The translations under genes were made by a program, and so were the position numbers. A DNA stretch of 64,000 nucleotides, taken from positions 23,235 to 87,234 of the forward strand of contig JBKHII010000002.1 in the NCBI GenBank assembly GCA_046538735.1, given 5' to 3'. Numbering within the stretch: position 1 is the first letter of the stretch; every line of letters begins with the position of its first letter. Below the pieces are notes generated by a model. It was not told the DNA's origin, did no database searches, and saw nothing but the letters and a program-made list of their open reading frames with translations. This stretch comes from Spirochaetales bacterium (lineage in GTDB: Bacteria > Spirochaetota > Spirochaetia > DSM-27196 > SLST01). Below are positions 4,133 through 42,679 of the stretch, piece after piece.

Positions 4133-5809
4133 CTACCGGCGAGCCGTTGCTTTCTGTGAGAGGAAGAGGTCGAACTCCGCCGGTGGAACCGCGGGCCCGA
4201 AGTAGTCTCCCTGGAGCAAATCGAAGCCCAGCCTGACCGCATCGCGGGCTTCCTCCGGGCTCTCCACGCCTTCCAGAACGATGATCTTGGAGAGGCTCTT
4301 CATTGCCGCGATCATGTGACCCAGGAAGGAGTGCCCGGTATCCGGGTCGGCGAGGTCGGCGGTGAACGACTGATCGAGTTTGAGGATGCGGGCGGGAAGG
4401 TTCCTCAGGTACGAGAGCGACGATTGACCGGTCCCGAAGTCGTCGATCAGGACGTCGACCCCGGCCGTCTGAAGAGTCTCGATCCGCTCGATCGCAGCCT
4501 CCGGATCGGCCATCGACTCGCTCTCCGTGATCTCCAGCTTGAGCTGTGAGGGCTCGATCCCGGAGCGGGTCATCGCCCGCTTCACGCTCTCGAGCATGTG
4601 GCGGTCCAGGAACTCGCCGGCCGTCATGTTCACGGTCACGAAAAAGTCGCGATCGCGCGACCACCGCTTGACCTGATTGCATGCCTCAAAGAGGACCCAT
4701 CGTCCGATTGAAACCATGAGCTCCGACTCCACGGCAATCGGAATGACCTCGTTCGGCATGAGCAGACCCCGATCGGGATGGTGCCACCGCAGGAGCGCTT
4801 CGGCCCCGATCGCCGTCCCCTTCGTGTTCACGATCGGTTGGAAGTTGAGCTGAAACTGGCCGTCCTTGACCGCCGATCCGAGCTCGGCCCCGAGCGCCAG
4901 CCGAGCCTGAATCGCCCGGTGCAACTCAGAGTCGAAGAACACGTAGGGGGCACGGCGTTGCCTCGCATCGGACATCGCAACGTGCGCGTTCCGCACGAGC
5001 TCTTCCCGGGTCTTCCCGTCGTTCGGGAAAATCGCGATGCCTATTCGAGCCCCTACTGCGAGCGTCGCGCCGCCGTACTGGTACGGGAGCGTGATCTCGT
5101 GGAGTATCCTCGTCGCGGTCGTGGCGAGCTCGACCCGGTCCCGGATCGTGGTGATGAGGACCGCGAGCTCGTTGCCGTCCGAACGGAAGGCATAGTCGCC
5201 GCTCTCGAGACACCTCGCGACACGCAGCCCCGTGTTCTCCAGTAGAAGGTCGCCCGTTTGATGACCGTAGAGGTCGATGATCTGGCTAAGATTGTCCACG
5301 AATATGAACATCACGGCTCGCGGCGAGCTATCGGTGCGGCGGGCCTGCTCGAGCTCCTTATCCACGATGATCTCCATCGATCTCCGGTTGAACAAGCCGG
5401 TCGTGGAATCGCGGAGCTCGTAGTTGGTCAGTTTCTCCTCGACCTGACTCAGTCGCGTGATGTCGTGCGAGAAGACGAGCACATGGGTCGTCATACCGTC
5501 CCGCATGTACGGAAAGAACGAGACGTGGATACTCCGCTCGATCTCACCGAAGGTGAACCTGTCCACGTAGTTCACTTGCTCGCCACCGAAGCAGCGGTCG
5601 AGATTCGGTCGGATAGCGGAGTCGAACCGGTCGTAACCCCACACCTCGGCAACGGTGTGACCCACGACCTGTTCGCGTGATCGACCGATCTGCCGGCAGT
5701 ACGCGTCGTTGGCGATCTCGTAGACGTAGTCCCGGTTGATGAGCGTGATGTAGTCGCTCGATCGGTTTACGATCTCCTCGTACGCGTTCACGTCTGTACT
5801 ATACTTCAT
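4133..5809 (-). CDS. PAS - degenerate GGDEF - EAL c-di-GMP phosphodiesterase
   Basis: PAS-like N-terminus. GGDEF fold (LFNRRSME...) with DGNEL in place of GGDEF. EAL domain has all motifs (EALLRW, KLEITE, DDFGTGQSSLSYL, KLDQSF, EGVES, QG). Start taken at MKYS (5809); an upstream ATG at 5941 is also possible. Confidence 0.9.
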   Translation of the reverse strand: MKYSTDVNAYEEIVNRSSDYITLINRDYVYEIANDAYCRQIGRSREQVVGHTVAEVWGYDRFDSAIRPNLDRCFGGEQVNYVDRFTFGEIERSIHVSFFPYMRDGMTTHVLVFSHDITRLSQVEEKLTNYELRDSTTGLFNRRSMEIIVDKELEQARRTDSSPRAVMFIFVDNLSQIIDLYGHQTGDLLLENTGLRVARCLESGDYAFRSDGNELAVLITTIRDRVELATTATRILHEITLPYQYGGATLAVGARIGIAIFPNDGKTREELVRNAHVAMSDARQRRAPYVFFDSELHRAIQARLALGAELGSAVKDGQFQLNFQPIVNTKGTAIGAEALLRWHHPDRGLLMPNEVIPIAVESELMVSIGRWVLFEACNQVKRWSRDRDFFVTVNMTAGEFLDRHMLESVKRAMTRSGIEPSQLKLEITESESMADPEAAIERIETLQTAGVDVLIDDFGTGQSSLSYLRNLPARILKLDQSFTADLADPDTGHSFLGHMIAAMKSLSKIIVLEGVESPEEARDAVRLGFDLLQGDYFGPAVPPAEFDLFLSQKATARR

Positions 5810-5961
5810 GAGTCCGAATTGGGCCACGGAGGTTTCTTCCGGTGCCTGCCGGTGGAACAACGCTCGATCCGCTCTCACTACCGTGATAACGGACTTGTTC
5901 CGATGCAGAATTGAAAATCGCCGACTCTCCGACACTCTCATTTCGAACGGGAGGCGGGTTC

Positions 5962-15447: not shown

Positions 15448-16407
15448 TCAGCAGAGAATCGCGCGGTTTCGACCGGCTTCCTTGGCGCGGTAGAGCGCCT
15501 TGTCCGCGGCCTGCTTGATCGTCTCGAGCGTGGAACCGTGGCGCGGGAACTCTGCGATCCCCTGGCTCGCGGTCACACGCACGATCCCGGACGGACCGAG
15601 CACCTCGAGCGACGCCACTGCCCGACGGATCGCCTCGGCGCTCTCGAGCGCCTCGTCCGCGGCTGCACCGGGCAGGATGATCGTGAACTCGTCGCCGCCG
15701 TACCGTGCCGCGATGCCCGTCGTGCCGAGTATGCTTCGCAGAGGCGGCGCGACCGAGGCGATCAATCGATCGCCGAACGGCTGCCCGTATGTGTCGTTGA
15801 TCGCGTGGAAGTGGTCGAGGTCCATCATGATGAGGCTGAAGATGCGGTTCTTCACGAGCGTCTCCGTGATCTGCTGCTCGAGCGCGCTGTCCAGGTAGCG
15901 TCGATTATAGAGCCCGGTGAGATCGTCGGTGATCGCTCGCCGCCGGGCGTTCTCGCCCCACTGCACGAGATCGGAGAGAAACGAGCTCGTCCGCGTGAGC
16001 CGTCCGGTCGTGATGTTCACCATCCGATGAAGAACCTTGGTCGCCGTGTGCGGATGCCTGCTCATGAGCGAGAAGAGGTGCTCCTTCTGGAGCCGGAAGA
16101 GCCGACCGCCGCCGGGCATGACGCAAGTGGCGGAACGAGGCGCGTCCTCGTAGATGGACATCTCACCGAAGAAGTCTCCCGGTCCGAGCTGGGCGACATC
16201 AACGTCCACACCGCCGTTCGCCCGGACGCGAACCGACACGGTGCCTTCCCCAACGATGTAGAGCTCATGCCCTTCGTCGCCCTGGCGGAAGACAACGCAG
16301 CCGGGATCGCACCTCACCTCCTCGAGGAAGCGGCGGAAGATGTCGAGCTCGTCGCTCGCCAGGTTCTCGAGGATCGCAACGCGGTGGAGCAAATCGGCGG
16401 AGATCAC
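15448..16407 (-). CDS. cNMP-binding domain - GGDEF diguanylate cyclase (canonical active site)
   Basis: CAP_ED motifs (FGEMSIYEDAPRSATCV), then LTGLYNRRYL...RYGGDEFTIILPG. No RxxD five residues upstream of GGDEF. GTG start overlaps the upstream stop (GTGA at 16404-16407), with GGAG upstream. Confidence 0.9.
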   Translation of the reverse strand: MISADLLHRVAILENLASDELDIFRRFLEEVRCDPGCVVFRQGDEGHELYIVGEGTVSVRVRANGGVDVDVAQLGPGDFFGEMSIYEDAPRSATCVMPGGGRLFRLQKEHLFSLMSRHPHTATKVLHRMVNITTGRLTRTSSFLSDLVQWGENARRRAITDDLTGLYNRRYLDSALEQQITETLVKNRIFSLIMMDLDHFHAINDTYGQPFGDRLIASVAPPLRSILGTTGIAARYGGDEFTIILPGAAADEALESAEAIRRAVASLEVLGPSGIVRVTASQGIAEFPRHGSTLETIKQAADKALYRAKEAGRNRAILC

Positions 16408-17387
16408 GAGGCGTGCTCCTGCGACTCCGTGACGAGCACACGGTTGCCGCCCGCATCGCGAGCTGCGAACACACGCTCGTGAGCCTTCGCGGAAAGCGTG
16501 GCGGCGTCCGTCCCGTGGTCCGGGGAGATTGCCACGCCCACGCTGAAGGTGAGCGGGATCTTGGCTTCTCCGGTCACCGGAGAGAGATCGGCTTCCGGCA
16601 TGCGTGCTCGAATGAGTTCGGCGCACTGCATCACGTCGTCCGCGCTCGTCGCGAGGAGAACCACGGCAAACTCGTTTCCGCGGTAGCGCACGGCGACATC
16701 CGAGTCGCGAAGGAGCGTCCGGAGATGATTCGCGAGGATCCGGAGCACGCGGTCGCCGACCTCGTGACCGAACGAGTCGTTGATGAGCTTGAAGTTGTCC
16801 GGCTTCACGAGCAGGACCCCCGCCCCGCCGCGGCTCCTGTCGAGTAAACCGTCGACCTCATCCTCCAGATAGCTCTTCGAATAGAGCCCGGTCAGTTTGT
16901 CGCCGAAAACCTGCTGACGGAGCTCTTGCACCCAGCTCGAGTTTTCGCTCACGAGCGCGTTCATCGACCTGATCCTGCCGGCCACGATCACCAGAAACTG
17001 ATGAAGCATACGAGCGTAGAGATTCGGGTGCTCGACCATGAGCTCGTCCAGCGAGGTACCGCGGGCAGGAAAGATGAGGATTCGGGTCTCGGCCTCGGCG
17101 ACGGCCCCTGCGGTGCGCGGGGCTTCGCTCAGGAAGTCCTGCTCACCGAAACTCTCGCCGCCAACGAAACGCGCGAGGTCGATCTCTCGACCGTCGTCGC
17201 CTTCCTTGACGATGCGCACCTCACCGTGGTCGATCACGAAGAGCTCTCGGTCGGCCGATCCGGCGCCGTAAACGATATCGCCGGGAGCGAAGTCGTAGAA
17301 CGCCGCGTGATCGGCGAGCAAGCTCAGGTCGCTCTGGGAAAGCTGCGAGAAGAGGTCAACTGACGCAAGAAGATCCAGCTTCTCCAT
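16404..17387 (-). CDS. cNMP-binding domain - degenerate GGDEF (RGNEF) protein with an intact I-site
   Basis: CAP_ED (FGEQDFLSEAPRTAGAV), then LTGLYSKSYL...RDSDVAVRYRGNEFAVVLL. RxxD is present five residues before RGNEF. Start taken at ATG 17387 (TTG 17399 also possible). Confidence 0.85.
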   Translation of the reverse strand: MEKLDLLASVDLFSQLSQSDLSLLADHAAFYDFAPGDIVYGAGSADRELFVIDHGEVRIVKEGDDGREIDLARFVGGESFGEQDFLSEAPRTAGAVAEAETRILIFPARGTSLDELMVEHPNLYARMLHQFLVIVAGRIRSMNALVSENSSWVQELRQQVFGDKLTGLYSKSYLEDEVDGLLDRSRGGAGVLLVKPDNFKLINDSFGHEVGDRVLRILANHLRTLLRDSDVAVRYRGNEFAVVLLATSADDVMQCAELIRARMPEADLSPVTGEAKIPLTFSVGVAISPDHGTDAATLSAKAHERVFAARDAGGNRVLVTESQEHAS

Positions 17388-17434
17388 CGAGATGGGCAAT
17401 TATGCCCGCAATCTGAAAGCGAAAGCAAGTAGCT

Positions 17435-19934: not shown

Positions 19935-20028
19935 CTCAGCGTCTGCCAGGCCCCAGACTTCGCGGCAGTTCACGAAAGTAGCGTGCGCCGCTTTGTGCGG
20001 CGGGCGTTTTCCTGCTATAGTCGGCGTG

Positions 20029-20943
20029 ATGCGCGACCTGATCATCATCGGCGCCGGCCCGGCGGGCCTTGCAGCCTCCCTCTACGCAACGAAGAAACGG
20101 CTCGACTACGTCGTTCTCGCCGAGGACCTCGGTGGGAAAAGCAACTACTCGATCGACCTTCCGGACACCGACCCGGGTGAACAGATACGCGCGAGCGAGT
20201 TGGTCACGGTGTACAAGACGCGGCTCCAGTACCTCCGGAACTCGCATGCGATCACGGGCGTCTGCGGGGTCAGGGCGGGCAACGGCTCCTTCACGGTCGA
20301 GACGGTCAAGGGCTCGAACGAGGAGGCGCGCGCGGTGATCGTGGCAACGGGGACCCGAATCGACCGCGATCCGGTCCCGGGCGAGGCGGAGTTCCTCTCG
20401 CGGGGACTCGGCTACTCGTCCGGCAGCTACTCGCATCTGCTGCGCGGAAAGCGCGTCTTCATCGCGGGCGAGACCGACCGCGCGCTCAGCTCGGCGCTCG
20501 AAATCTCCATACACGCCGACTCCGTAACGGTTGCGCTTCTCGAGGGCGGCAGCTTCAGTCCGCCCCTCCTGGAACGCGTCCGCTCGCTCGACCGCGTGTC
20601 GCTCGTGGACAGGGCGACGCTCACGGCGTTCGAAGGCGACGAGTACGCACGATCGGTGACAATCGCCTCCTCAGGGAGCGAACGGAAGATCGAGGCCGAC
20701 GGTTTCTTCATCGAGCCCGAGCCGATCCCGAACACCGAGTTCCTCGGCGACTCGCCGGCGACAGACGACCGTGGCTACCTCCCGGTCAACGGCGCCAACA
20801 TGACGGCGGTAGACGGGCTCTTCGCCGCCGGCGACGTTACCGGCAGCGGGTTCGAGCAGGTTCTCGTCGCACTCGGCGACGGAGGCAAGGCGTCGTTGTC
20901 CGTGTACCGCTATTTGATCGAGCACGGCCTCACGGCCGGTTAG
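20029..20943 (+). CDS. thioredoxin-reductase-fold flavoprotein lacking the CxxC and the NAD(P)H glycine motif
   Basis: FAD motifs IIIGAGPAGLAASLYA and GLFAAGDV are present. Where TrxB has CATC...GGGNSA, this protein has SSGS...AGETDRA. Confidence 0.8.
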   Translation: MRDLIIIGAGPAGLAASLYATKKRLDYVVLAEDLGGKSNYSIDLPDTDPGEQIRASELVTVYKTRLQYLRNSHAITGVCGVRAGNGSFTVETVKGSNEEARAVIVATGTRIDRDPVPGEAEFLSRGLGYSSGSYSHLLRGKRVFIAGETDRALSSALEISIHADSVTVALLEGGSFSPPLLERVRSLDRVSLVDRATLTAFEGDEYARSVTIASSGSERKIEADGFFIEPEPIPNTEFLGDSPATDDRGYLPVNGANMTAVDGLFAAGDVTGSGFEQVLVALGDGGKASLSVYRYLIEHGLTAG

Positions 20944-20993: not shown

Positions 20994-21023
20994 TTGACAG
21001 CACGCGAATACCCGTCATACAAT
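20994..21023 (+). promoter_or_regulatory. candidate promoter of the hydrogenase operon (TTGACA-18-TACAAT)
   Basis: TTGACA at 20994-20999 and TACAAT at 21018-21023, about 77 nt upstream of the ATG at 21100. A 10-bp palindrome ATATCGATAT sits at 21035-21044 just downstream. Confidence 0.35.
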
Positions 21024-21099
21024 TCGATGAGATAATATCGATATCAGGGGCTCTATTCAGTCATCGCTGCTTCTCCTGGAGTCCGTCCAAGGAGGCCTC

Positions 21100-21615
21100 A
21101 TGGAGCTGGAACAGGTTCGCACCCAGTCGGACGAGATCGAGGACGGCGCTACGCGTGCCGAGCTCGATCGCTACATCAACGATCACCTCACGATGGAGGG
21201 CAATCTCATCCCCGTCCTCCAGCACGCACAGCAGCTCTACGGCTACCTTCCCAAGTCGGTCCTGAAGCACATCAGCGAGCGACTCGATATCTCGTACAGC
21301 GAGGTCGCCGGCGTTGTCACGTTCTACTCGTTCTTCTCCACCGTCCCGCGCGGCAAGCACGTCATCCGCGTCTGCCTCGGAACGGCGTGCTACGTCCGTG
21401 GCGGCAAGGAAGTACTCGCGGCGTTCCAGAACGAGCTGGGGATCGACGTGGGAGAGACCACGGAGGACCGGCTCTTCTCGCTCGAAGTCGGCCGCTGCTT
21501 CGGCGCGTGCGGTCTCGCACCGGTCGTCATGATCGACGATGAGGTCCATCAGCGCGTGAAACCCGCGAAGGTGCGCGAGCTGCTCGCCGGATACCGCATG
21601 GAGGACCAGGCATGA
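21100..21615 (+). CDS. NuoE/HydC/HndA-like [2Fe-2S] subunit of an NAD(P)H-linked [FeFe]-hydrogenase
   Basis: IPVLQHAQQLYGYLP, CLGTACYVRGG, CFGACGLAPVVMIDD. GGAGG Shine-Dalgarno. The stop overlaps the next start (ATGA). Confidence 0.9.
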   Translation: MELEQVRTQSDEIEDGATRAELDRYINDHLTMEGNLIPVLQHAQQLYGYLPKSVLKHISERLDISYSEVAGVVTFYSFFSTVPRGKHVIRVCLGTACYVRGGKEVLAAFQNELGIDVGETTEDRLFSLEVGRCFGACGLAPVVMIDDEVHQRVKPAKVRELLAGYRMEDQA

Positions 21616-24600
21616 AACCGATCCGAAGCCGCAAGGACCTGGAGAACGTAGCCGCGGAGCGCTCCGCGGCCGCAAGCAAGAGAAAGGTTCGATTCCACGT
21701 CTGCATGGGCGCAAGTTGCATCGCGTCCGGTGCGGACGACGTACTGGCCGCGCTCGAGAGCGAGCTCGCCGAGCGCAACGGTACCGTTGAGGTGACCGGG
21801 ACCGGCTGCATGGGTCCGTGCGTCCGCGGTCCCCTCATTCGCGTCGTGGGCGAGCACGAGACGACGTACACACACGTCACCGTGGACGAGGTTCCCGCGA
21901 TCGTGTCGCAGGCGTTCGGCGTGACCGCTTCGGCGGGCGACACGGCTACCACCGAGCCGGACGGGGAGCTCGAGTCTTTCTTCGCCGCGCAGGAGCGCAT
22001 CGTGCTCCGCAACTGCGGGATCGTGGATCCTGCGAAGATCGACGACGCGATCGCGCACGGCGGCTACGCCGCGCTCGAGCGCGTGCTCCGGGAGCTCTCA
22101 CCCGAGGAGATCGTTTCCGAGCTCAAGACCTCGGGGCTCCGCGGCCGCGGAGGGGCAGGATTCCCGACTTGGCTCAAGTGGCAGCTCACGCAGCAGGCGC
22201 CGGGAGACGAGAAGTTCGTCCTCTGCAACGCGGACGAAGGCGACCCCGGCGCGTTCATGGACCGGAGCGTCCTCGAGGGCGATCCGCACTCGCTCATCGA
22301 AGGCATGGCGATCGCCGCACGCTGCGTGGGCGCCCGGCGCGGCGTCGTCTACGTGCGGGCCGAATACCCGCTCGCGATCGAGCGACTCGAGCACGCGATC
22401 CGCGAGGCTCGCGAGGCCGGGCTTCTCGGCGAGTCGATCCTGGGCAGCGACTTCTCGTTCGACCTCGAGATCAGACGAGGCTCGGGCGCGTTCGTCTGCG
22501 GCGAGGAGACCGCGCTCATCCACTCGATCGAGGGCAAGCGCGGCGAGCCGAGGCCGCGACCGCCGTTCCCGGCGCAGAAAGGACTCTGGGGCAAGCCGAG
22601 CCTCCTCAACAACGTTGAGACCTATGCGAACATCGCGTCGATCTTCACACGAGGCGGCGAGTGGTTCGCCTCGCACGGCACGCCCGAGAGCCGCGGCACG
22701 AAGGTGTTCGCGCTCGCCGGCGCGATCGAGAACACCGGGCTCGTGGAGGTGCCGATCGGCACCACGCTCGGCGAGCTCGTCTACGACATCGGCGGCGGCA
22801 TCAAGGGAGGCCGCCCGTTCAAGGCGGCGCAGATCGGCGGGCCCTCCGGCGGCTGCGTGCCGAAGAGCAACCTGGACGTACCGCTGGACTACGAGTCGCT
22901 CCAGGAAATCGGCGCGATCATGGGCTCGGGCGGGCTCATCGTGATGGACGACGAGACGTGCATGGTGGACGTCGCCCGATTCTTCCTCGAGTTCGTGCAG
23001 GAGGAGTCGTGCGGGAAGTGCGTCCCGTGCCGCGTGGGCACGAAGCGGATGCTCGAAATCCTCAACCGGATCGTCTCCGGCGACGGCGAGATGGAGGACA
23101 TCGACCGGCTGATCGAGCTCGGGAAGCAAATCAAGGAGACCGCGCTCTGCGGCCTCGGCCAGACGGCGCCGAACCCGGTCCTCTCCACGATTCGCCACTT
23201 CCGGAACGAGTACGAAGAGCACATCCGAGACCGCCACTGCGCCGCGGGCGTCTGTCCCGGCCTGGTACGGGCGCCGTGCCAGAGCGCCTGCCCGGCGGGT
23301 GTGGACGTTCCCGGCTTCGTCGCGCTCGTGGGCGAGAAGCGGTACGCGGAGGCGCTTGCCCTCCATCGGAACCGCAATCCGTTTGCGGCGGTCTGCGCGC
23401 GCGTCTGCTTCCATACCTGCGAAGACCACTGTCGCCGGGCATCGCTGGACGACTCCGTGGCGATCCGCGGCGTGAAGCGGTTCATGGTCGACCAGGAGGT
23501 CGTCGTCCAGCTGCCAACGGTCCGCGAGAACCCTGAGAACGCCGGGCGTCGCGTGGCGATCGTGGGCGCTGGGCCGGCGGGCCTCTCGTGCGCGTACTTC
23601 CTCGCGCGGCTCGGCTACCGTCCCACGGTCTTCGAGGCGGAGTCGCGGCCGGGCGGCATGCTCGTGCAGACGATCCCCGCCTACCGCCTGCCGCGCGAGA
23701 CGCTCGCGAGAGAGATTCGCATGATCGAGCAACTCGGCGTGGACATCCGCACCGAGCAACGGCTCGGGCGCGACATCACGATCGACGGTCTCAAGGAAGC
23801 GGGCTACGAGGCGCTCTTCCTCGGTATGGGCGCGCCGGAGTGCATGGAGATGGGCATCCCGGGAGAGGAGAGCTCGGGCGTCATCAAGGCGGGTGAGTTC
23901 CTGCGGACCTACAACATCCGCGGGTCGGTCCCGGTCGGCAAGCAGGTCGTCGTGGTCGGCGGCGGGAACGCGGCGGTGGACGCCGCGCGGACCGCGCTCC
24001 GGCTCGGAGCAGAGCGCGTGACGATCATCTACCGGCGCACGCGCGAGCAGATGCCCGCGTACGAAGAGGAGATCGAGGAAGCGCTCCACGAGGGAGTCGA
24101 GCTCAGGACGCTCGTGCAGCCCACGGAAGTCGTCGCCAGGAAGGGCGCGGTAGCGGGCCTGCGCTGCGAGGCGATGACGCTCGGCGAGTTCGACCGCAGC
24201 GGACGCAGACGCCCCACGCGATCCGGCGACGAGAGCTTCGTGATGGAGGCCGACCAGGTAATCGTGGCGATCGGGCAGAAACTGGAAACCTCGTCGATTG
24301 CCGAGCTCGGCGAGCTCGAACGCAACGACTGGGGATTTATAGCAGCCGATCCGCTCACCGGACAGACCAGCGTTCCGTGGGTCTTCGCCGGAGGTGACGC
24401 GGCAAGCGGACCTGCCTCGGTCGTCACGGCGATCGCGGCCGGCGAACGAGCCGCGGTCGGCATCAACCTCCTCCTGACCGGACGCGCGGACGCGTTCTGG
24501 CGCGAGGAACAGGAAGTAGACACGAGCTACGACCCGGACGCCGAGCCGGCTCCGTATCCCCGGGAGGCGTACCGTACGATCGCCGTGGACCGCAGGCGCC

Positions 24601-24776
24601 ACAACTTCGACGAAGTCGAACAGCCGTGGTGCGAGGCGGTTGCGCTTCGCCAGGCTCACCGCTGCCTGCGCTGCGACTACGGGAAGCAGATCGCGAAGCC
24701 GGTCGTCCCAACGGGACTCCGGTCTGACGAGAAGGGAGCGGACACCGCGCGAACGAAGGAGGAGCTCCATGCATAA
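21612..24776 (+). CDS. fused flavoprotein subunit: Trx-like [2Fe-2S] + NuoF/HydB core + GltD/NfnB-like FAD/NAD(P)H oxidoreductase
   Basis: N-terminus CMGASC...GCMGPC. NuoF core GRGGAGFPTWLKW, CGKCVPCRVG, CGLGQTAPNP. From about nt 23230: Cys-rich CPGLVRAPCQSACPAG...CARVCFHTCEDHC, then VAIVGAGPAGLSCAYFLARLG and VVVVGGGNAAVDAAR dinucleotide folds, as in the glutamate synthase small subunit. Confidence 0.9.
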   Translation: MKPIRSRKDLENVAAERSAAASKRKVRFHVCMGASCIASGADDVLAALESELAERNGTVEVTGTGCMGPCVRGPLIRVVGEHETTYTHVTVDEVPAIVSQAFGVTASAGDTATTEPDGELESFFAAQERIVLRNCGIVDPAKIDDAIAHGGYAALERVLRELSPEEIVSELKTSGLRGRGGAGFPTWLKWQLTQQAPGDEKFVLCNADEGDPGAFMDRSVLEGDPHSLIEGMAIAARCVGARRGVVYVRAEYPLAIERLEHAIREAREAGLLGESILGSDFSFDLEIRRGSGAFVCGEETALIHSIEGKRGEPRPRPPFPAQKGLWGKPSLLNNVETYANIASIFTRGGEWFASHGTPESRGTKVFALAGAIENTGLVEVPIGTTLGELVYDIGGGIKGGRPFKAAQIGGPSGGCVPKSNLDVPLDYESLQEIGAIMGSGGLIVMDDETCMVDVARFFLEFVQEESCGKCVPCRVGTKRMLEILNRIVSGDGEMEDIDRLIELGKQIKETALCGLGQTAPNPVLSTIRHFRNEYEEHIRDRHCAAGVCPGLVRAPCQSACPAGVDVPGFVALVGEKRYAEALALHRNRNPFAAVCARVCFHTCEDHCRRASLDDSVAIRGVKRFMVDQEVVVQLPTVRENPENAGRRVAIVGAGPAGLSCAYFLARLGYRPTVFEAESRPGGMLVQTIPAYRLPRETLAREIRMIEQLGVDIRTEQRLGRDITIDGLKEAGYEALFLGMGAPECMEMGIPGEESSGVIKAGEFLRTYNIRGSVPVGKQVVVVGGGNAAVDAARTALRLGAERVTIIYRRTREQMPAYEEEIEEALHEGVELRTLVQPTEVVARKGAVAGLRCEAMTLGEFDRSGRRRPTRSGDESFVMEADQVIVAIGQKLETSSIAELGELERNDWGFIAADPLTGQTSVPWVFAGGDAASGPASVVTAIAAGERAAVGINLLLTGRADAFWREEQEVDTSYDPDAEPAPYPREAYRTIAVDRRRHNFDEVEQPWCEAVALRQAHRCLRCDYGKQIAKPVVPTGLRSDEKGADTARTKEELHA

Positions 24777-26595
24777 GGTCACGATCAACGGACGCGAGCT
24801 CGTCGTGGAGCCAGGTGCGACGATCCTGGAGGCGGCCAAGGGAGCCGGTATCCATATTCCAACGCTTTGCCACCTCGAGCATCACGCCCCGCAGGGAGCG
24901 TGCCGCGTTTGCGTGGTAGAGGTAGAGGGCGCGCGCACGCTCCAGGCGGCGTGCGCGACACCGGTGCGAGACGGCATGATCGTGAAGACGAACAGCGCGC
25001 GCGTGCGCGCCGCCCGGAAGACGGTCGTGGACCTGCTCCTGAGCGAGCACGAGGGGAACTGCCAGTACTGCGATCGGAGCGTCGACTGCGAGCTTCAGGA
25101 CCTCGCGTACTCGCTGGGTGTGGACGCGCCCCGCTACACGGGCGAGAAGCCGGCCGTGCTGTTTGACCGGAGCACGCCGGCGCTCGAGCGCGACAGCGGC
25201 AAGTGCATCAAGTGCCGCCGGTGCGTGACCGCGTGCAACGACGTTCAGCAGGTGGGCGCACTCTTCCCGCAGTACCGGGGCTACCAGACGCTCGTCGCGC
25301 CTGCCTTCGCCTCGGACCTCGCAGACGTCGCCTGCGTGCAGTGCGGCCAGTGCGCGGCGGTCTGCCCCGTGGGCGCGATCTCGGAGCGCAGCCACATCGA
25401 GCAGGTTTGGCGCGCGCTCGAAGATCCCGATCGCCACGTCGTCGTGCAGACCGCACCTGCCGTTCGGGCCGCGCTCGGAGAGTGCTTCGGGAACGATCCC
25501 GGCACGCTCGTCACCGGCAAGATGGTGAGCGCGCTCCGCGAGCTCGGTTTCAACGCCGTGTTCGACACAAACTTCACCGCCGACCTCACGATCATGGAGG
25601 AGGGCACCGAGCTGTTGATGCGCCTCAAGCAGGCGCTCGTGGGAGACGCGGCGACCCCGGGTGACGCATCCTCCGCGGCGGACGCGCACGGCGCCGACCA
25701 CGCCTTCGGCCCGCTGCCGCAGTTCACGAGCTGTTCGCCGGGCTGGATCAAGTTCGCCGAGCACTTCTTCCCGGAGTACCTCCCGAACGTATCGACCTGC
25801 AAGTCGCCGCAGCAGATGTTCGGCGCGCTTGCGAAGACGTACTACGCGGAGACCGCCGGCGTGGATCCGAACAAGATGGTCGTGGTTTCGATCATGCCGT
25901 GCACCGCCAAGAAGTTCGAGGCGGTGCGCGACGAGATGACCGACAGCGGCTTCCAGGACGTGGATTACGTACTCACGACGAGAGAGCTCGGGCGCATGGT
26001 CCACTCTGCCGGTATCGACTTCAACGCGCTTCCGGACGGCGAGATGGACGCGCCCATGGGCTTCTCCAGCGGCGCGGCGGACATCTTCGCGAACACCGGC
26101 GGCGTCATGGAGGCGGCGCTCCGGACGGCGTGGGAGATCGTGACCGGCAAGGAGCTCCCGCTCGAGGGACTCCACGTGAAGCCCGTCGTCGGGCTCGAAG
26201 GAATCAAGGAAGCCTCGCTCGTCGTCTCCGATCCGCTGCCGGAGTGGTCGTTCCTGGACGAGGTCGAGCTCAAGGTGGCCGTCGCGCACGGGCTCGGCAA
26301 TGCGGCGAAGCTGATCGAGGAGATCAAGGCAGGCCGACGCGCGTATCACTTCGTGGAGATCATGACCTGTCCCGGAGGATGCATCGGCGGCGGCGGCCAG
26401 CCGCGAATGACGACGGACGATGTGCGGCGGGCCCGGATCGATGCGATCTACCGCGAAGACGAGGGAAAGCCGGTGCGCAAGTCGCACCTCAACCCGCAGA
26501 TCGCCGAGATCTACGAGAAGTACCTGGGCAAGCCGCTCGGCGACCGCTCGCACCACCTGCTCCACACGGAGTACGTGGCGCGCTCGCGAGTGTAG
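24769..26595 (+). CDS. hydA: [FeFe]-hydrogenase catalytic subunit (M3 architecture)
   Basis: N-terminal 2Fe-2S (CRVC), His-ligated cluster (HEGNCQYC...C), 2x CxxCxxCxxxC. H-domain motifs FTSCSPGW (L1 variant), MPCTAKKFE (L2), EIMTCPGGCIGGGGQP (L3). 8-nt overlap with the upstream gene. Confidence 0.92.
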   Translation: MHKVTINGRELVVEPGATILEAAKGAGIHIPTLCHLEHHAPQGACRVCVVEVEGARTLQAACATPVRDGMIVKTNSARVRAARKTVVDLLLSEHEGNCQYCDRSVDCELQDLAYSLGVDAPRYTGEKPAVLFDRSTPALERDSGKCIKCRRCVTACNDVQQVGALFPQYRGYQTLVAPAFASDLADVACVQCGQCAAVCPVGAISERSHIEQVWRALEDPDRHVVVQTAPAVRAALGECFGNDPGTLVTGKMVSALRELGFNAVFDTNFTADLTIMEEGTELLMRLKQALVGDAATPGDASSAADAHGADHAFGPLPQFTSCSPGWIKFAEHFFPEYLPNVSTCKSPQQMFGALAKTYYAETAGVDPNKMVVVSIMPCTAKKFEAVRDEMTDSGFQDVDYVLTTRELGRMVHSAGIDFNALPDGEMDAPMGFSSGAADIFANTGGVMEAALRTAWEIVTGKELPLEGLHVKPVVGLEGIKEASLVVSDPLPEWSFLDEVELKVAVAHGLGNAAKLIEEIKAGRRAYHFVEIMTCPGGCIGGGGQPRMTTDDVRRARIDAIYREDEGKPVRKSHLNPQIAEIYEKYLGKPLGDRSHHLLHTEYVARSRV

Positions 26596-38783: not shown

Positions 38784-39494
38784 ATGAGCAATGCCAGACC
38801 GTTCGAGTCCAACGGGATGCGGGCCTACATCGTGCTCGCGTCGATCTTCACCGGAGCCATCGTCGCGGCGAACCTGATGGGAACGAAGGTGATCCCCTTC
38901 TTCTCGATCGGCGGCTTCCAGTTCACGGGATCGGTCGGGATCTTCCTGTTCCCGCTCACCTTCCTCATTACGGACATCGTGGCCGAAGTGTACGGACCGC
39001 GCGCAACGCGAGCCATCGTTACCGGCACGCTCATCGTGCTCGCAGCCGTGCTTGCGGTCACCGCGCTCGCGACGGTGCTGCGGCCCGCCGCTCGGTTCGC
39101 TCAGCAGAACGACGCGTACGTCGCGGTATTCCGGAGCTCGCTGCGAATCCTGTTCGCGAGCATCGTGGGATTCAGCTTCTCGCAGTACCACGACGTGTGG
39201 GCGTTCGAGTTTTGGAAGAAGAAGACGAACGGTAAGTTCCTCTGGCTCCGGAACAACGCCTCAACGATCGTCAGTCAACTCATCGATACGGTCGTCTTCA
39301 TGCTCATCGCCTTCTGGGGAACGAACGAGCGATTCACGCTCGCGTTCGTGCTCGGCAGCATGGTACCGCCGTACTATCTCCTCAAGGTGCTCGCGGCGTT
39401 CGCGGATACTCCGCTCGTGTACCTGGGCGTCTCGATGTTGAAGAAGGCAGGAGTCGGACCGCTCGACCCGACTCCGAAGCCGGAAGCAGCCTAG
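38784..39494 (+). CDS. yhhQ: queuosine-precursor transporter (YhhQ/DUF165, VUT family)
   Basis: FLFPLTFLITDIVAEVYG, FSQYHDVWAFEFWKK, LWLRNNASTIVSQLIDTVVF. Start ATG 38784 (TTG 38775 and ATG 38817 are alternatives). Confidence 0.8.
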   Translation: MSNARPFESNGMRAYIVLASIFTGAIVAANLMGTKVIPFFSIGGFQFTGSVGIFLFPLTFLITDIVAEVYGPRATRAIVTGTLIVLAAVLAVTALATVLRPAARFAQQNDAYVAVFRSSLRILFASIVGFSFSQYHDVWAFEFWKKKTNGKFLWLRNNASTIVSQLIDTVVFMLIAFWGTNERFTLAFVLGSMVPPYYLLKVLAAFADTPLVYLGVSMLKKAGVGPLDPTPKPEAA

Positions 39495-40180
39495 TCGTTG
39501 TTGTTCTGTTTCTCCACGCGGCGGAACTGGTCCGCCCATCGGACGAAGGCGGGTGTCTTGCGCGTCTGGATCCAGACCTTGCCCGAACCGGTGAAGCGGC
39601 AGACGAGTCCTTCGCCGGAGAAGAAGACGCTCTTCAGTCCGGCAACACCTCGCACGTCGTACGAGAGCCCTTCCGTGAATCCCACGATGTGCCCCGTGTC
39701 CACGACGTAGTTGTCCGTGACGTCGATCTCGATCATTGCACCGAAGGTGTTGAACCAGAGATCGCCGCTTCCCGTGCAGCGGATCATGAAGAGCTTCTCG
39801 CCTGAGAAGAATCCCTTGAATCCCTGGAACTCGGGCTGCACGTCCAGGTCGGGGCTCGAGGCGAGATACGAGGAGTTCTGGAGGTAGATCGTCTCGTTCT
39901 CCAGGTAGACGTGCAGCAGGTCGCCGGGCGTCCCGGGCGCGATGCCGATCTCGCCACTCGTCTCGTTCGCGGTGAACTCGTTGATGAAAAGCTTCTCACC
40001 GGAAATCATGCGCTTGAGACCGCCCTTCATGCGCGTCTTCATCGCGAGCGACGAGTCCATGTACGCCATCGCGGACGCCTCGACCCGGAGCATCCGGCCG
40101 GCCGGTATGGTCACGTTCGCGATTCCGTAGTCGGGACGGGAAGAGATCGTGTGCGGATAATCGGTTCTATCAAAGTTCAT
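39491..40180 (-). CDS. AIM24/DUF124 (TIGR00266-like) family protein, paralog 3 of 3
   Basis: LRVEASAMAYMDSSL, GEKLFINEFT, LQNSSYLASS, FFSGEGLVCRFTGSGKVWIQT: shared family pattern with the two upstream genes. Confidence 0.8.
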   Translation of the reverse strand: MNFDRTDYPHTISSRPDYGIANVTIPAGRMLRVEASAMAYMDSSLAMKTRMKGGLKRMISGEKLFINEFTANETSGEIGIAPGTPGDLLHVYLENETIYLQNSSYLASSPDLDVQPEFQGFKGFFSGEKLFMIRCTGSGDLWFNTFGAMIEIDVTDNYVVDTGHIVGFTEGLSYDVRGVAGLKSVFFSGEGLVCRFTGSGKVWIQTRKTPAFVRWADQFRRVEKQNNND

Positions 40181-40190
40181 CGTCTCCTCC

Positions 40191-40883
40191 TCAGTTCTTC
40201 TTGGGCGTGAGATGGGGCGTCAGCTTCGCACCGAATACGCGATCCGCGTGTGTCTGACACCATACGGTCCCGCTCCCGCTGAATCGGCAGACCAGACCCT
40301 CGCCGCCTGCGATCGCCGTTCCCCAGCTCTTCCCGGCTTTCGTGATCGTGAAGTCGAGCGACGTGGTGAACGCGGCGATGTTTCCGGTATCCACGACGTA
40401 TTCGCCGTTCACCTGCACCGGATAGATCGCTCCGAACGCGTTGATGACGACCTTGCCGCGACCGGAAAGCTCGAGCCAGATCAGGCTCTCGCCGGAGACC
40501 ACGTTCTTGAGCCCGCCCCACTTGATGTTCAGATCCACACCGCTCTCGTGCGCCACGAAGGAGCTGTTCTGCACCTGCAAGGTCGTTGACCCGTCGAGCT
40601 CGATCACTTCCATGTCGCCGGGAAGCGTCGTCGCGAGGTAGATCTCGCCGCCCCGGCTCCCTGCGGTGAAGTAGTTCATGAAGATCCCTTCGCCGCCGAG
40701 CCGCCGGGCGAGCCCCTTGAGCAGGCCTCCCCCTCCCTTCTCGTTCTTCCGGATCCGGGTATCCACGCTCATGTCGTCCGACATCGCGATCATCGCCCCG
40801 CCCTCGGCGGTGAGCGTCTCCCCGGGGCCGAGCATGACCTTTGCCGCCGCATTGGACGGGCGTGAAAGCACTTCAACGTTCAT
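40191..40883 (-). CDS. AIM24/DUF124 (TIGR00266-like) family protein, paralog 2 of 3
   Basis: LTAEGGAMIAMSDDM, GEGIFMNYFT, VQNSSFVAHE, IAGGEGLVCRFSGSGTVWCQT. 10-nt gap to the next gene. Confidence 0.8.
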   Translation of the reverse strand: MNVEVLSRPSNAAAKVMLGPGETLTAEGGAMIAMSDDMSVDTRIRKNEKGGGGLLKGLARRLGGEGIFMNYFTAGSRGGEIYLATTLPGDMEVIELDGSTTLQVQNSSFVAHESGVDLNIKWGGLKNVVSGESLIWLELSGRGKVVINAFGAIYPVQVNGEYVVDTGNIAAFTTSLDFTITKAGKSWGTAIAGGEGLVCRFSGSGTVWCQTHADRVFGAKLTPHLTPKKN

Positions 40884-40892
40884 CTCGACCTC

Positions 40893-41558
40893 CTACCGGA
40901 ACTTCGGGTTGAGCCACGCCGCGAGGCCTCGGACGCTCCGCGTCTGGATGTACGCGGTCCCGTTTCCAACGAGCCGCGTCACGAGCCCTTCGCCGCCGAA
41001 GAGACTCGAGAAGAAGCCGCCGGCCATCGCGATCTTCAGCTTGAGCGAGGGGTCGTACGCCACGAGGTGACCGTCATCCACCTTCAGCTCGCCCCGCACC
41101 TCGCGCTTCAGCATGCCGCCGTACGCGCCGTACCAGAGTGTGCCGCTCCCGGACGCTTTGAGCTTCACGAGCCCTTCGCCCAATACCCAGGACGCGAATC
41201 CCGCCCACGCGGTGGTGAGCTTCACGTTCCCTGCGTGCGCGAGATACGCGCCCTTCTGGAGACAGATCTCCTGCCCTTCTCTCAGGGACAGCTCCACGAT
41301 CTCTCCCGGCACGTCTTGCGCGATCGTGACCCGCCGCGGACCCGACGAGCCGTTGGAGAAGCGGTTCACGAAGAACGACTCCCCTCCAAACAGCTTCTTC
41401 CCGAGCGCCGAGAAGAAACTGCCGTTCGTCACGGCCTTCATGTCCAACTCGGGCGACATCGATTGCATCGCGCCGGCCTCGACCGTCAGCTCTTCGCCGG
41501 GCGAGATATCAACGTGCACATGGCTGAACGACGGACTGCCAAGAATCTCCGTTCTCAT
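40893..41558 (-). CDS. AIM24/DUF124 (TIGR00266-like) family protein, paralog 1 of 3
   Basis: LTVEAGAMQSMSPEL, GESFFVNRFS, LQKGAYLAHA, LFGGEGLVTRLVGNGTAYIQT. The ATG at 41558 is preceded by GGAGAGG. Confidence 0.8.
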   Translation of the reverse strand: MRTEILGSPSFSHVHVDISPGEELTVEAGAMQSMSPELDMKAVTNGSFFSALGKKLFGGESFFVNRFSNGSSGPRRVTIAQDVPGEIVELSLREGQEICLQKGAYLAHAGNVKLTTAWAGFASWVLGEGLVKLKASGSGTLWYGAYGGMLKREVRGELKVDDGHLVAYDPSLKLKIAMAGGFFSSLFGGEGLVTRLVGNGTAYIQTRSVRGLAAWLNPKFR

Positions 41559-41602
41559 GGACCTCTCCTTCCATTGCTTCGTTCGACAGATGCCTGCAGC
41601 GG

Positions 41603-41630
41603 ATTCTACCATGCCGACCGCACGGATCAA
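41603..41630 (-). promoter_or_regulatory. candidate promoter of the AIM24 triplet (TTGATC-16-TGgTAGAAT, extended -10)
   Basis: On the minus strand: TTGATC (41630-41625), 16 nt, TAGAAT (41608-41603) preceded by TGg. It lies about 45 nt upstream of the ATG at 41558. Confidence 0.45.
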
Positions 41631-41698
41631 GGAGAATAGCCTCGGCGCCGATCCTGAGCGGCAAGACACGCTCCCGCGAAGGTGATACGGTCTCCCAC

Positions 41699-42679
41699 GT
41701 GACACCGCTGCACCATCGCTCTGCCCGCCGATCGGCTTCCATCGTTCCCACGCGCAGCCGTGCCCGGACGCTCGTGGTCCTCCTCACGGCGCCGCTCCTC
41801 GCGACAACGGCGCTCTCGGGATGCGCCGGCACCCCGCCCACCGTGGAGAGCTACCCGGAATGGAGCGCTCGCCGCATGAAGCTCAACGAGATCGAGGTCC
41901 ACTACTTCGATTTCTTCGCGCAGGAGCCCGCGACCCCGGTCGTGTGGATCCACGGCTACTCGGGATGCGCCTTCGAAACCTATTTCGTCAAGGACCATCT
42001 CGCCCCGCGGCGCCGGCTCATCGCGCCCGACCTCCCCGGCAACGGCTACTCGGACAAGCCGGACATCGACTACACGCTCGAGTACTACGTCGGCTTTCTT
42101 CATGACTTCATCGGCGAGCTCGGGCTGGACGAGTACATCCTGGTCGGCCATTCGATGGGCGGCCTCATCGCATCAGCGTTCGCCGCCGAGCATCCGATCG
42201 GTCTGGAACGGCTCGTGCTCGTCGCGCCGTTCGGACTCGAAGGAGAGGCGGGTCCCGTGCTCGACTTCCTCGCGCGAACCGGGTTTCTCGTGGACGCCGG
42301 CCTGCAGCTCCACAACGAGACGATCCTGGGAATCGCGATCCGCGCCAACGTCTTCCACGAGCCCGACCGCATTCCGGACGACCTCGTCAACTATCTCGCG
42401 GTCGGCACCTTCCACACCGAGAACGGCGTGGAAGCGATCGCCAACGTCACGCAGAACATCATCGGCGTCACGCACGACCCGTCGATCCTGGAAGAGGTCC
42501 TGGTACCCACGCTCATCGTGTGGGGATCCCAGGATCGCATCCTCGAGTACCGCTTCGCGACCGAGTTCGACCGCCTCATCCCGAACAGCTACCTCCAGAC
42601 GGTCCCGGACTGCGGCCACATGCCTCACGTGGAGCTGCCCGAGGTCACGGGAGCGATCATGAGCATCTTCCTGAAGTAG
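41699..42679 (+). CDS. alpha/beta-fold hydrolase lipoprotein
   Basis: Lipobox TTALSGC after a hydrophobic signal. HGYSG oxyanion region, nucleophile elbow GHSMGG, C-terminal CGHMPH. GTG start. Confidence 0.85.
   Translation: MTPLHHRSARRSASIVPTRSRARTLVVLLTAPLLATTALSGCAGTPPTVESYPEWSARRMKLNEIEVHYFDFFAQEPATPVVWIHGYSGCAFETYFVKDHLAPRRRLIAPDLPGNGYSDKPDIDYTLEYYVGFLHDFIGELGLDEYILVGHSMGGLIASAFAAEHPIGLERLVLVAPFGLEGEAGPVLDFLARTGFLVDAGLQLHNETILGIAIRANVFHEPDRIPDDLVNYLAVGTFHTENGVEAIANVTQNIIGVTHDPSILEEVLVPTLIVWGSQDRILEYRFATEFDRLIPNSYLQTVPDCGHMPHVELPEVTGAIMSIFLK

Follow-up and report, generated by a model that had tools for sequence, protein, structure and literature searches.

The stretch of DNA analyzed here, referred to as the window, comprises 64,000 nucleotides of contig JBKHII010000002.1 from a Spirochaetales bacterium (assembly GCA_046538735.1), and it contains a three-gene operon, hydC-hydB-hydA, whose middle gene encodes a fusion of a NuoF-type flavoprotein core with a GltD-like NADPH-FAD module (Table 1). 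Judging by its sequence, it codes for an [FeFe]-hydrogenase of the HydABC/Bfu lineage, soluble and heterotrimeric, which would fall into group A3 and, within it, among the sub-type I BfuABC enzymes. The original prediction had described three translationally coupled genes at this locus, and direct reading of the open reading frames (ORFs) and their junctions bore this out: the ATGA at 21612 is common to the hydC stop and the hydB start, hydB and hydA overlap by 8 nucleotides (24769-24776), and strong Shine-Dalgarno sequences precede all three starts (AAGGAGG, GGAGGA and GAAGGAGGAG). A convergent alpha-amylase gene downstream closes the hydCBA unit.

Table 1. Genes, protein domains and sequence motifs of the hydCBA locus, with positions in the window
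Feature	Position	Strand	Remarks
sigma-70-like promoter TTGACA-18-TACAAT	20994..21023	+	11/12 consensus match only; in the 156-nucleotide gap 5' of hydC
hydC/bfuC	21100..21615	+	171 residues; NuoE-like thioredoxin-fold [2Fe-2S] subunit; PF01257, 172 bits
hydB/bfuB fusion	21612..24776	+	1054 residues; NuoF-type flavoprotein core and GltD/Stn-type NADPH-FAD module
HydB thioredoxin-like [2Fe-2S] domain (B5; Cys31, 36, 66, 70)	21681..21911	+	PF01257, residues 24-100
HydB NuoF core: FMN/NADH site GRGGAGFPT, SLBB, four-helix bundle with B1 [4Fe-4S]	21999..23231	+	PF01512, PF10589
HydB hinge with predicted B2/Zn ligands His537, Cys543, Cys548	23220..23255	+	fourth ligand, Cys450, upstream at 22959-22961
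HydB DPD_II (Fer4_20) helical domain	23244..23498	+	PF14691, 73 bits; occupies the place of B3/B4
HydB FAD Rossmann fold (G652-x-G654-x-x-G657) and NADPH Rossmann fold (G783-G-G785-N-A-A788, Y807-R808-R809)	23550..24443	+	PF07992, 127 bits
HydB permuted segment RRRHNFDEVEQPW...RC1018LRC1021, residues 992-1022 (RRRHNFDEV...RCLRC)	24585..24677	+	supplies the CxxC of the canonical NfnB/GltD N-terminus
hydA/bfuA	24769 (ATG)..26595	+	608 residues; M3-type [FeFe]-hydrogenase catalytic subunit
HydA P1 TSCSPGW	25726-25746	+	variant of TSCCPxW
HydA P2 MPCTAKKFE	25894-25920	+	canonical
HydA P3 EIMTCPGGCIGGGGQP	26356-26403	+	canonical

The Pfam matches of HydB followed one another in the order 2Fe-2S_thioredx (residues 24-100), Complex1_51K (172-342), SLBB, NADH_4Fe-4S (453-537), Fer4_20 (545-629) and Pyr_redox_2 (647-944), in agreement with the three-module order that had been read from the translation, in which all the motif strings quoted at that time were also found. 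The NuoF models gave 162 bits (PF01512), 124 bits (PF10589) and 487 bits (TIGR01959), with SLBB at 26.6 bits, just under its cut-off of 27, and HydB thus has the NuoF FMN, SLBB and NuoF [4Fe-4S] domains (IPR011538, IPR019554 and IPR019575) as well as the B2/Zn hinge and the B5 [2Fe-2S] domain that characterize BfuB. Residues 28-554 matched the HydB of Acetobacterium woodii and the B subunit of the Acetomicrobium mobile NiFe-HydABCSL with 694-707 bits, and the target-normalized template modeling (TM) scores obtained with Foldseek for this core ranged from 0.80 to 0.94. When 118 homologues were compared, the B1 ligands (Cys467, 470, 473 and 513) and the hinge ligands were invariant, and the four B5 cysteines were 99-100% conserved. 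Cys450 and the hinge (H-x5-C-x4-C) aligned without gaps with the B subunits of A. woodii, Thermoanaerobacter kivui, A. mobile and Sporomusa ovata, all of solved structure, and mapping by position onto the His/Cys3 zinc ligands identified in Tsi NfnB (PMC12018979) indicated that Cys450, His537, Cys543 and Cys548 probably form the Zn (B2) site. In a neighbor-joining tree of NuoF cores, a rough distance tree from which no number of fusion events was drawn, the window clade nested within B subunits that carry a two-[4Fe-4S] tail. The N-terminal 554 residues of HydB are, by these features, a bona fide Bfu-type B subunit. Its partner HydC is a NuoE-like subunit of the BfuC kind, in which the PF01257 domain carries the four cysteines of the C1 [2Fe-2S] cluster (Cys92, 97, 133 and 137). 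Because the B1, FMN, hinge and B5 sites of HydB and the C1 cysteines of HydC are all kept, the B1-FMN-C1 "flavobicluster", which is now regarded as the bifurcating site (PMC11829005), is predicted to be intact in the window enzyme.

The C-terminal half of HydB is where the protein departs from the bifurcating enzymes. The B3/B4 ferredoxin-like domain is part of the ferredoxin-binding site of these enzymes and one of the defining InterPro domains of BfuB (Schut et al. 2022, PMC9304861). HydB lacks this C-terminal 4Fe-4S ferredoxin-type domain (IPR017896; B3, B4) and has Fer4_20 and Pyr_redox_2 in its place; no Fer4-family domain was matched by Pfam in HydB, and the sole CxxCxxCxxxCP motif found by scanning the six frames of the window lay inside hydA, the same scan yielding no separate ferredoxin gene in the 64 kb. 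The replacement module is well provided with binding residues. The ligands of its two [4Fe-4S] clusters in DPD_II (Cys556, 560, 595, 599, 603 and 607, and Lys622), the FAD GxGxxG, the NADPH GxGxxA, Tyr807-Arg808-Arg809 and Arg692 were 100% conserved in the 118 homologues, and with the equally invariant Cys1018 and Cys1021 of the permuted segment the module has eight cysteines, all of them 100% conserved. An AlphaFold2 model of HydB alone (mean predicted local distance difference test (pLDDT) score 83.3, predicted TM score 0.75) showed the permuted tail folded, with a pLDDT of 84-88; values below 50 were confined to the final ~15 residues (1040-1054). The module is intact and under selection, and the invariance of the NADPH and FAD motifs and of the cluster ligands is incompatible with a decaying relic. 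These data support the earlier claim that the ferredoxin-like tail had been exchanged for a second flavin/nicotinamide site with FAD- and NAD(P)H-binding residues, from which different electron partners should be expected.

As to the kind of module, residues ~550-1022 matched the A subunits of the NfnABC/Stn complexes with 381 (9bov_A), 352 (9n5u_A) and 338 bits (8oh5_C), compared with 304 bits for NfnB (4ylf_B), 286 bits for NfnL (5jca_L) and 186 bits for GltD (2vdc_G); DPD also scored below NfnB and NfnL. The TM-score to 5jca_L was 0.79 (Foldseek). Residues 992-1022 of HydB aligned with residues 13-43 of NfnB, and the same segment is placed after the Rossmann folds in NfnA and StnC, a circular permutation that the HydB module has in common with these two proteins. 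Moreover, Lys622 aligned with K170 of StnC, at a place where NfnB has a Glu. On the basis of the permuted segment, the equivalence of Lys622 and StnC K170 and the overall scores, we assign the module to the Stn/NfnABC type and not to the canonical NfnB/GltD type. The invariant Lys on the FAD-proximal [4Fe-4S] cluster is a Stn/NfnABC character, whereas the location of the module is not, because in those complexes it is inserted in an H-cluster-free NuoG-like A subunit and here it lies on HydB, next to a HydA with a complete H-cluster. The characters of the large subunit of NfnSL, i.e., a Glu on the proximal cluster, an N-terminal CxxC and an NfnS partner, were replaced by the Lys and the permuted segment, and no NfnS-like gene was present in the operon. 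Hence, the GltD-like module announced in the original prediction is complete, but only by virtue of the C-terminal segment 992-1022 and not in the canonical order, and the term "Nfn-like", used there for a logic of NADH plus NADPH, has to be qualified in view of the Stn/NfnABC type of the module. Some NfnB-like traits were also observed, namely the extra Cys595, Val566 at the position of StnC C114, and Arg692, which corresponds to R201 of NfnB. Cys556 is located 8 residues after the hinge Cys548, and homology to Csac NfnA suggests that Cys556 serves the distal cluster and Cys560 the proximal one.

The identity of the module bears on whether ferredoxin is still a partner of the enzyme, docking at the distal [4Fe-4S] cluster of DPD_II as it does on NfnL, with the FAD perhaps acting as a second, NfnB-like bifurcating center. 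Such an enzyme might catalyze 2 NADPH + NAD+ + 2 H+ <-> 2 NADP+ + NADH + H2, or might handle four partners (H2, NAD, NADP and ferredoxin). A possible second "FAD" bifurcation center was indeed proposed by Zheng and Huang (PMC11406978), a "likely ferredoxin" acceptor has been put forward for the GltA domain on a fused HydB from archaea (PMC11216029), and the NfnB-like Cys595, Val566 and conserved Arg692 would suit this arrangement. However, the FAD-proximal cluster carries Lys622, as in StnC/NfnA, and not the Glu of NfnB, no NfnA/NfnS-like partner was detected and neither the operon nor the 64-kb window has a ferredoxin gene, and the B3/B4 domain missing here is a part of the "tripod" that binds ferredoxin in Bfu enzymes (PMC11829005). 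The FAD of the homologous Stn/NfnABC complexes is a non-bifurcating entry point for NADPH at the end of a wire of clusters (PMC10482914, PMC11829005). Since the module has the Stn-type signature, this analogy disfavors an NfnB-style bifurcating FAD and argues for a plain entry/exit flavin. We consider a continued role of ferredoxin unlikely.

The HydB fusion is neither a chance event nor a misassembly, because the identical 1054-residue protein is encoded on two independent metagenome-assembled genome (MAG) assemblies, GCA_048615395.1 and GCA_964518025.1, and the fusion junction is present in at least 580 species genomes. The latter count comes from a scan of one genome per GTDB species with an alignment confined to the junction, starting in the last part of NuoF, crossing DPD_II and reaching into the FAD fold; the best 80 loci all span the whole junction, and the carriers belong to Spirochaetota, Omnitrophota, Kiritimatiellia, Lentisphaerota, Fibrobacterota, Hydrogenedentota and Planctomycetota. 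Two of the carriers, Sediminispirochaeta bajacaliforniensis (P0086/L003) and Alkalispirochaeta americana (P0120), are in culture. A split of the 1054-residue ORF, as might come from a sequencing error, can thus be dismissed. In a database clustered at 90%, more than 120 full-length relatives showed at least 65% identity, those with a taxon name coming from Spirochaetota, Omnitrophota, Lentisphaerae, Chitinispirillaceae and one Verrucomicrobia-labelled MAG. The database label of these relatives is merely "NuoF", and in NCBIfam HydB itself reaches the cut-off of neither the NuoF nor the PRK12771 model. In a library of 50%-identity representatives, which shows diversity and not abundance, the sub-type collapses to very few entries, and fused proteins were found down to 35% identity. 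Two further kinds of protein were noted (P0209, P0210, P0218, P0221, P0251, P0257; P0130, P0136, P0140, P0141, P0158, P0164): proteins of ~650 residues that start at the NuoF four-helix/B1 region (query ~418) and run through the PRK12771-like GltD module, and deep NuoF-GltD fusion lineages of 35-42% identity, some of which lack the thioredoxin-like domain. The rough tree likewise hints at further deep lineages of NuoF-GltD fusions.

The order hydC-hydB-hydA was kept across phyla in every one of the best loci with enough contig, and hydC stood directly 5' of hydB wherever the contig covered that region, apart from two loci, L060 (6125-6502, Hydrogenedentota) and L064 (6104-6475, Planctomycetaceae), where a gene for a thioredoxin-like [2Fe-2S] protein of ~125 residues (BfuD) lies between hydC and the fused hydB. 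BfuD is absent from the window, in which the overlap of hydC and hydB at ATGA leaves no room for it. Clustering of all the ORFs of 81 loci revealed no further neighbor conserved in more than ~16 loci besides hydCBA and antisense shadow ORFs, the most frequent accessory set (~16 loci) being a block of Rex-like, CMD-like and second hydABCD genes in Omnitrophota. A second hydA with a canonical CC P1 was found in 14 loci (e.g., L009, L013, L014, L018, L022-L025, L028 and L033), the 10 listed here being from Omnitrophota. The gene layout around the second hydA was read in L023 (3677-8820), where the sub-type I hydCBA genes are followed directly by genes for a Rex-like repressor and a CMD-like protein and by a full hydC-hydD-hydB-hydA set of the canonical kind, with a 2x[4Fe-4S] tail on HydB and TTCCPSW in HydA; this side-by-side arrangement would fit two enzymes with different partners.

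The neighborhood also speaks to the idea that the module has no role with free NADP(H), either because it hands its electrons to a protein such as the large subunit of glutamate synthase or because it is the relic dealt with above. HydDB describes the group A2 hydrogenases as a possible source of reductant for glutamate synthase (PMC5037454), and the original prediction had mentioned group A2 as that of the GltD-linked [FeFe]-hydrogenases. The HydDB rule assigns to A2 the enzymes with GltD "but not NuoF" in the neighboring protein and to A3 those with a neighboring NuoF (PMC5037454). Read by hand, this rule would give A3 and not A2, because NuoF (PF01512 and PF10589) is in the same HydB protein, although the rule addresses the downstream protein and hydB is here upstream. 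No gltB-like gene or other conserved partner gene adjoins the operon in 80 loci, which makes such a handoff unlikely, and with A2 excluded by NuoF we regard a module without a free NADP(H) function as very improbable.

HydA displayed the M3 layout already proposed for it, with Fer2_4, NADH-G_4Fe-4S_3, 2x4Fe-4S (Fer4_7), Fe_hyd_lg_C and Fe_hyd_SSU in this order, and its Pfam matches and cysteine pattern account for the N-terminal [2Fe-2S], the His-ligated [4Fe-4S] and the two [4Fe-4S] accessory clusters of this type. It passed the NCBIfam models NF040763 (865 bits, cut-off 765) and TIGR02512 (503 bits, cut-off 406), and its best match in the PDB was A. woodii HydA1 (7q4v_A, 597 bits). The three H-cluster motifs of group A M3 enzymes, with the consensus forms TSCCPxW (P1), MPCxxKxxE (P2) and ExMxCxxGCxxGxGQP (P3), were present, P1 being refined to the TSCSPGW variant that occurs also in the active A. 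woodii HydA1 and that was found in all sub-type I HydA partners. No relevant publication on the TSCSP variant of P1 was found in the literature. Throughout the loci compared (L003-L083), the serine of this P1 (Ser323 in the window) occupies the position of CpI Cys300, which we take to be a ligand of the [4Fe-4S]H cluster. The serine was accompanied in 67 out of 67 cases by a cysteine ~20 residues downstream (Cys344 in the window, nucleotides 25798-25800, in STCKSPQQ), whereas the canonical-CC HydAs had Ala or Ser at this position (14 out of 14); A. woodii HydA1 (7q4v) has the same pair of residues. Cys344 of the TSCSPGW HydAs may be a relocated cluster ligand. HydA also contains an Ala/Asp/Gly-rich insertion, QALVGDAATPGDASSAADAHGADHAF (25632-25708, HydA ~288-313), which separates the accessory-cluster domains from the H-domain and remained unaligned in the HydA proteins of A. 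woodii and T. kivui and in CpI.

Upstream of hydC, one promoter-like site was observed in the intergenic gap, compared with 0.3 expected from shuffled sequences. Just 3' of its -10 element lies a perfect 10-bp palindrome, ATATCGATAT (~21035-21044), which has no resemblance to a Rex box and is a possible operator of the operon. The gene that precedes the gap (19993-20943, + strand) encodes a TrxR-like flavoprotein with 172 bits for TIGR01292 (cut-off 343); in its translation …GYSSGSYSH… apparently stands in place of the redox-active CxxC, and the glycine motif for NADPH seems degenerate. This gene was rejected as the source of a fourth subunit because no loci other than the three nearest ones (L004-L006) conserve it in front of hydC and because the promoter-like site separates it from hydC. 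Pfam scans of the 59 further ORFs of the window found no hydE/F/G, as had been stated before, nor rnf genes or a second hydrogenase, the only radical-SAM protein among them being RlmN-like. The window also contains three AIM24-family genes in tandem (39491-41705, - strand; PF01987, about 200-208 bits each), two cNMP-binding GGDEF diguanylate cyclase genes in tandem (15448-17399, - strand) and a PAS-GGDEF-EAL gene (4133-5941).

The architecture was already catalogued from sequence in 2024 as sub-type I BfuABC. In that study, Zheng and Huang (mSystems, PMC11406978) split group A3 into sub-types, sub-type I having a BfuB in which B3/B4 are replaced by DPD_II and a FAD/NAD(P) domain; they reported these BfuABC enzymes, generally devoid of BfuD, in Spirochaetota, Planctomycetota, Verrucomicrobiota and Kiritimatiellota, and they remarked that FAD and FMN-FeS centers had never been reported together before and that study was needed. 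The window enzyme matches this sub-type in DPD_II and FAD/NAD(P), in an M3a HydA with Ser at position 5 of P1 and in the absence of BfuD, and no architectural difference was found. The work in PMC11406978 is bioinformatic only and centered on Hydrogenedentota, and the Stn-type identity of the module, its permutation, Lys622 and the covariation of P1-Ser with Cys344 are not in it. The earlier statement that no biochemically resolved enzyme with this exact fusion was known agrees with the searches of the literature and of PDB chains, but the architecture itself had been catalogued, and a HydB with a GltA domain had been described in archaea (PMC11216029).

Three groups of characterized enzymes, and one known by its domain description, are close to the window enzyme. 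The electron-bifurcating HydABC enzymes from A. woodii, T. kivui and Thermotoga maritima, together with the A. mobile NiFe-HydABCSL (7q4v, 8a6t, 7p5h and 7t2r) have the same subunit set and share the HydA M3 layout (with P1 TSCSPGW in A. woodii), the FMN, B1, Zn hinge and B5 of HydB and the C1 of HydC, with 46-57% identity to the window HydB over ~550 columns (65-66% for shorter entries of 412-436 columns); they differ in that a two-[4Fe-4S] ferredoxin-like end reduces ferredoxin where the window enzyme has a ~500-residue NADPH-FAD-2x[4Fe-4S] module. The StnABC/NfnABC complexes of S. ovata (8oh5), C. saccharolyticus (9bov) and T. sibiricus (9n5u) share the BfuBC-type core, the permuted GltD-like module, the proximal-cluster Lys and the NADPH site. 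In these complexes, however, the module is in the NuoG-like A subunit and supplies the mid-potential path; they retain B3/B4 and lack an H-cluster. In the window enzyme the module is on the B subunit, where B3/B4 would otherwise be, and a genuine hydrogenase forms the A subunit. NfnB/NfnL and GltD (4ylf_B, 5jca_L and 2vdc_G) have the same module fold, 2x[4Fe-4S], FAD and NADPH, but in the canonical order with an N-terminal CxxC segment, and NfnB differs further in the Glu on the proximal cluster, the NfnA/NfnS partner and the bifurcating FAD. Finally, the archaeal group F hybrid [FeFe]/[NiFe] hydrogenases (PMC11216029) have a HydB with a glutamate-synthase (GltA/GltD) domain, modeled there with 7E5Z_B and 7MFM_I; they are likened to the window enzyme by this description and differ in their catalytic subunits and in an extra HyhL/HydD.

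In our proposal, which we hold with about even confidence, the enzyme couples H2/H+ to NAD(H) at the FMN and to NADP(H) at the FAD, NADP(H) taking the place of ferredoxin. In the Bfu scheme, the third substrate feeds B1/FMN via the A subunit, the FMN is the site of reaction for NAD(H), and the low-potential electrons travel from the mobile C1 to B3, B4 and ferredoxin (PMC11829005). The window enzyme would resemble other HydABC enzymes in that electrons from H2 leave the H-cluster along the clusters of HydA and arrive at B1/FMN, with NAD+ reduced at the FMN, and the low-potential branch would run from C1 to the distal [4Fe-4S] cluster, the Lys622 proximal [4Fe-4S] cluster, the FAD and NADP+ instead of through B3 and B4 to ferredoxin. 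The net reaction would be 2 H2 + NAD+ + NADP+ <-> NADH + NADPH + 2 H+, with no participation of ferredoxin. Its most likely direction during fermentation would be toward H2, the electrons of NADH and NADPH being vented together. With the physiological potentials given in the literature (about -280 mV for NADH and about -370 mV for NADPH), we calculated that NADH and NADPH together could sustain H2 formation to roughly 100 Pa, compared with ~3 Pa for NADH alone. A more demanding form of the proposal, put forward tentatively and with clearly less confidence, is that of a ferredoxin-independent, obligatorily coupled con/bifurcating hydrogenase in which B1-FMN-C1 splits electrons between FMN-NAD(H) and a hard-wired FAD-NADP(H).

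Several points weigh against our proposal. The electron link from C1 to DPD_II is drawn by analogy only, and the specificity for NADPH, as opposed to NADH, at the FAD site is predicted from motif homology. The homologous subunit of NfnSL binds both NADPH and ferredoxin. The acceptor of the GltA domain of archaeal HydB was assumed by Greening et al. (2024, Cell, PMC11216029) to be a low-potential one, and it is from this assumption that the ferredoxin assignment cited above derives. A full-text literature search found no publication on the purification or assay of a sub-type I enzyme, and a Foldseek search against the PDB found no chain that covers both halves of HydB. Furthermore, because NAD+ and NADP+ are both thermodynamically downhill from H2 at high H2 partial pressure, obligatory coupling is not required, and the two sites might work independently.

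This last point leads to a non-bifurcating dual-cofactor hydrogenase, in which the FMN (NADH) and FAD (NADPH) sites would each exchange electrons with the H-cluster on their own. Such an enzyme would resemble the ferredoxin-independent Hyd1ABC of Syntrophomonas wolfei with an added NADPH port, and it would have NADPH:NAD+ transhydrogenase as a side activity. In S. wolfei Hyd1ABC, HydB is devoid of B3/B4 and there is no bifurcation, yet H2 is produced from NADH (PMC9304861, PMC11406978), and this precedent, together with the role of the Stn-type FAD as a simple two-electron/one-electron converter and our own reasoning that coupling is unneeded when both pyridine nucleotide couples lie above that of H2, favors independent sites. 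The window HydB, unlike the S. wolfei-type and "sub-type II" proteins, nevertheless keeps B5, the Zn hinge and C1 invariant, which are hallmarks of a bifurcating core, and an apparatus that is conserved as a whole in at least 580 genomes is probably in use. We therefore consider independent, uncoupled sites rather unlikely, though a more serious contender than the ferredoxin-dependent enzyme discussed above, and retain the coupling of H2 to NAD(H) and NADP(H) as the working model.

In metabolic reconstructions, it is routine to annotate an [FeFe]-hydrogenase of group A3 as a bifurcating enzyme that uses NADH and ferredoxin. Because sub-type I has an NADPH site where the domain that docks ferredoxin would be, what is modeled of the fermentation, H2 thresholds and NADPH supply of at least 580 carrier genomes may be wrong, and current annotation, with its "NuoF" label and NCBIfam scores below the cut-offs, gives no sign of the module. 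The enzyme class is a worthwhile target, to which the window adds an example and not a discovery; because the acceptor of the low-potential branch is covalently attached, it could help to settle how B1-FMN-C1 bifurcates. If the coupled NADH plus NADPH reading is true, these enzymes would represent a new coupling logic for hydrogenases and, with the low-potential branch built into the protein, would make the Bfu mechanism tractable to study, and the models of H2 thresholds and NADPH balance in anoxic habitats would change for hundreds of Spirochaetota, Omnitrophota and PVC/FCB-group anaerobes.

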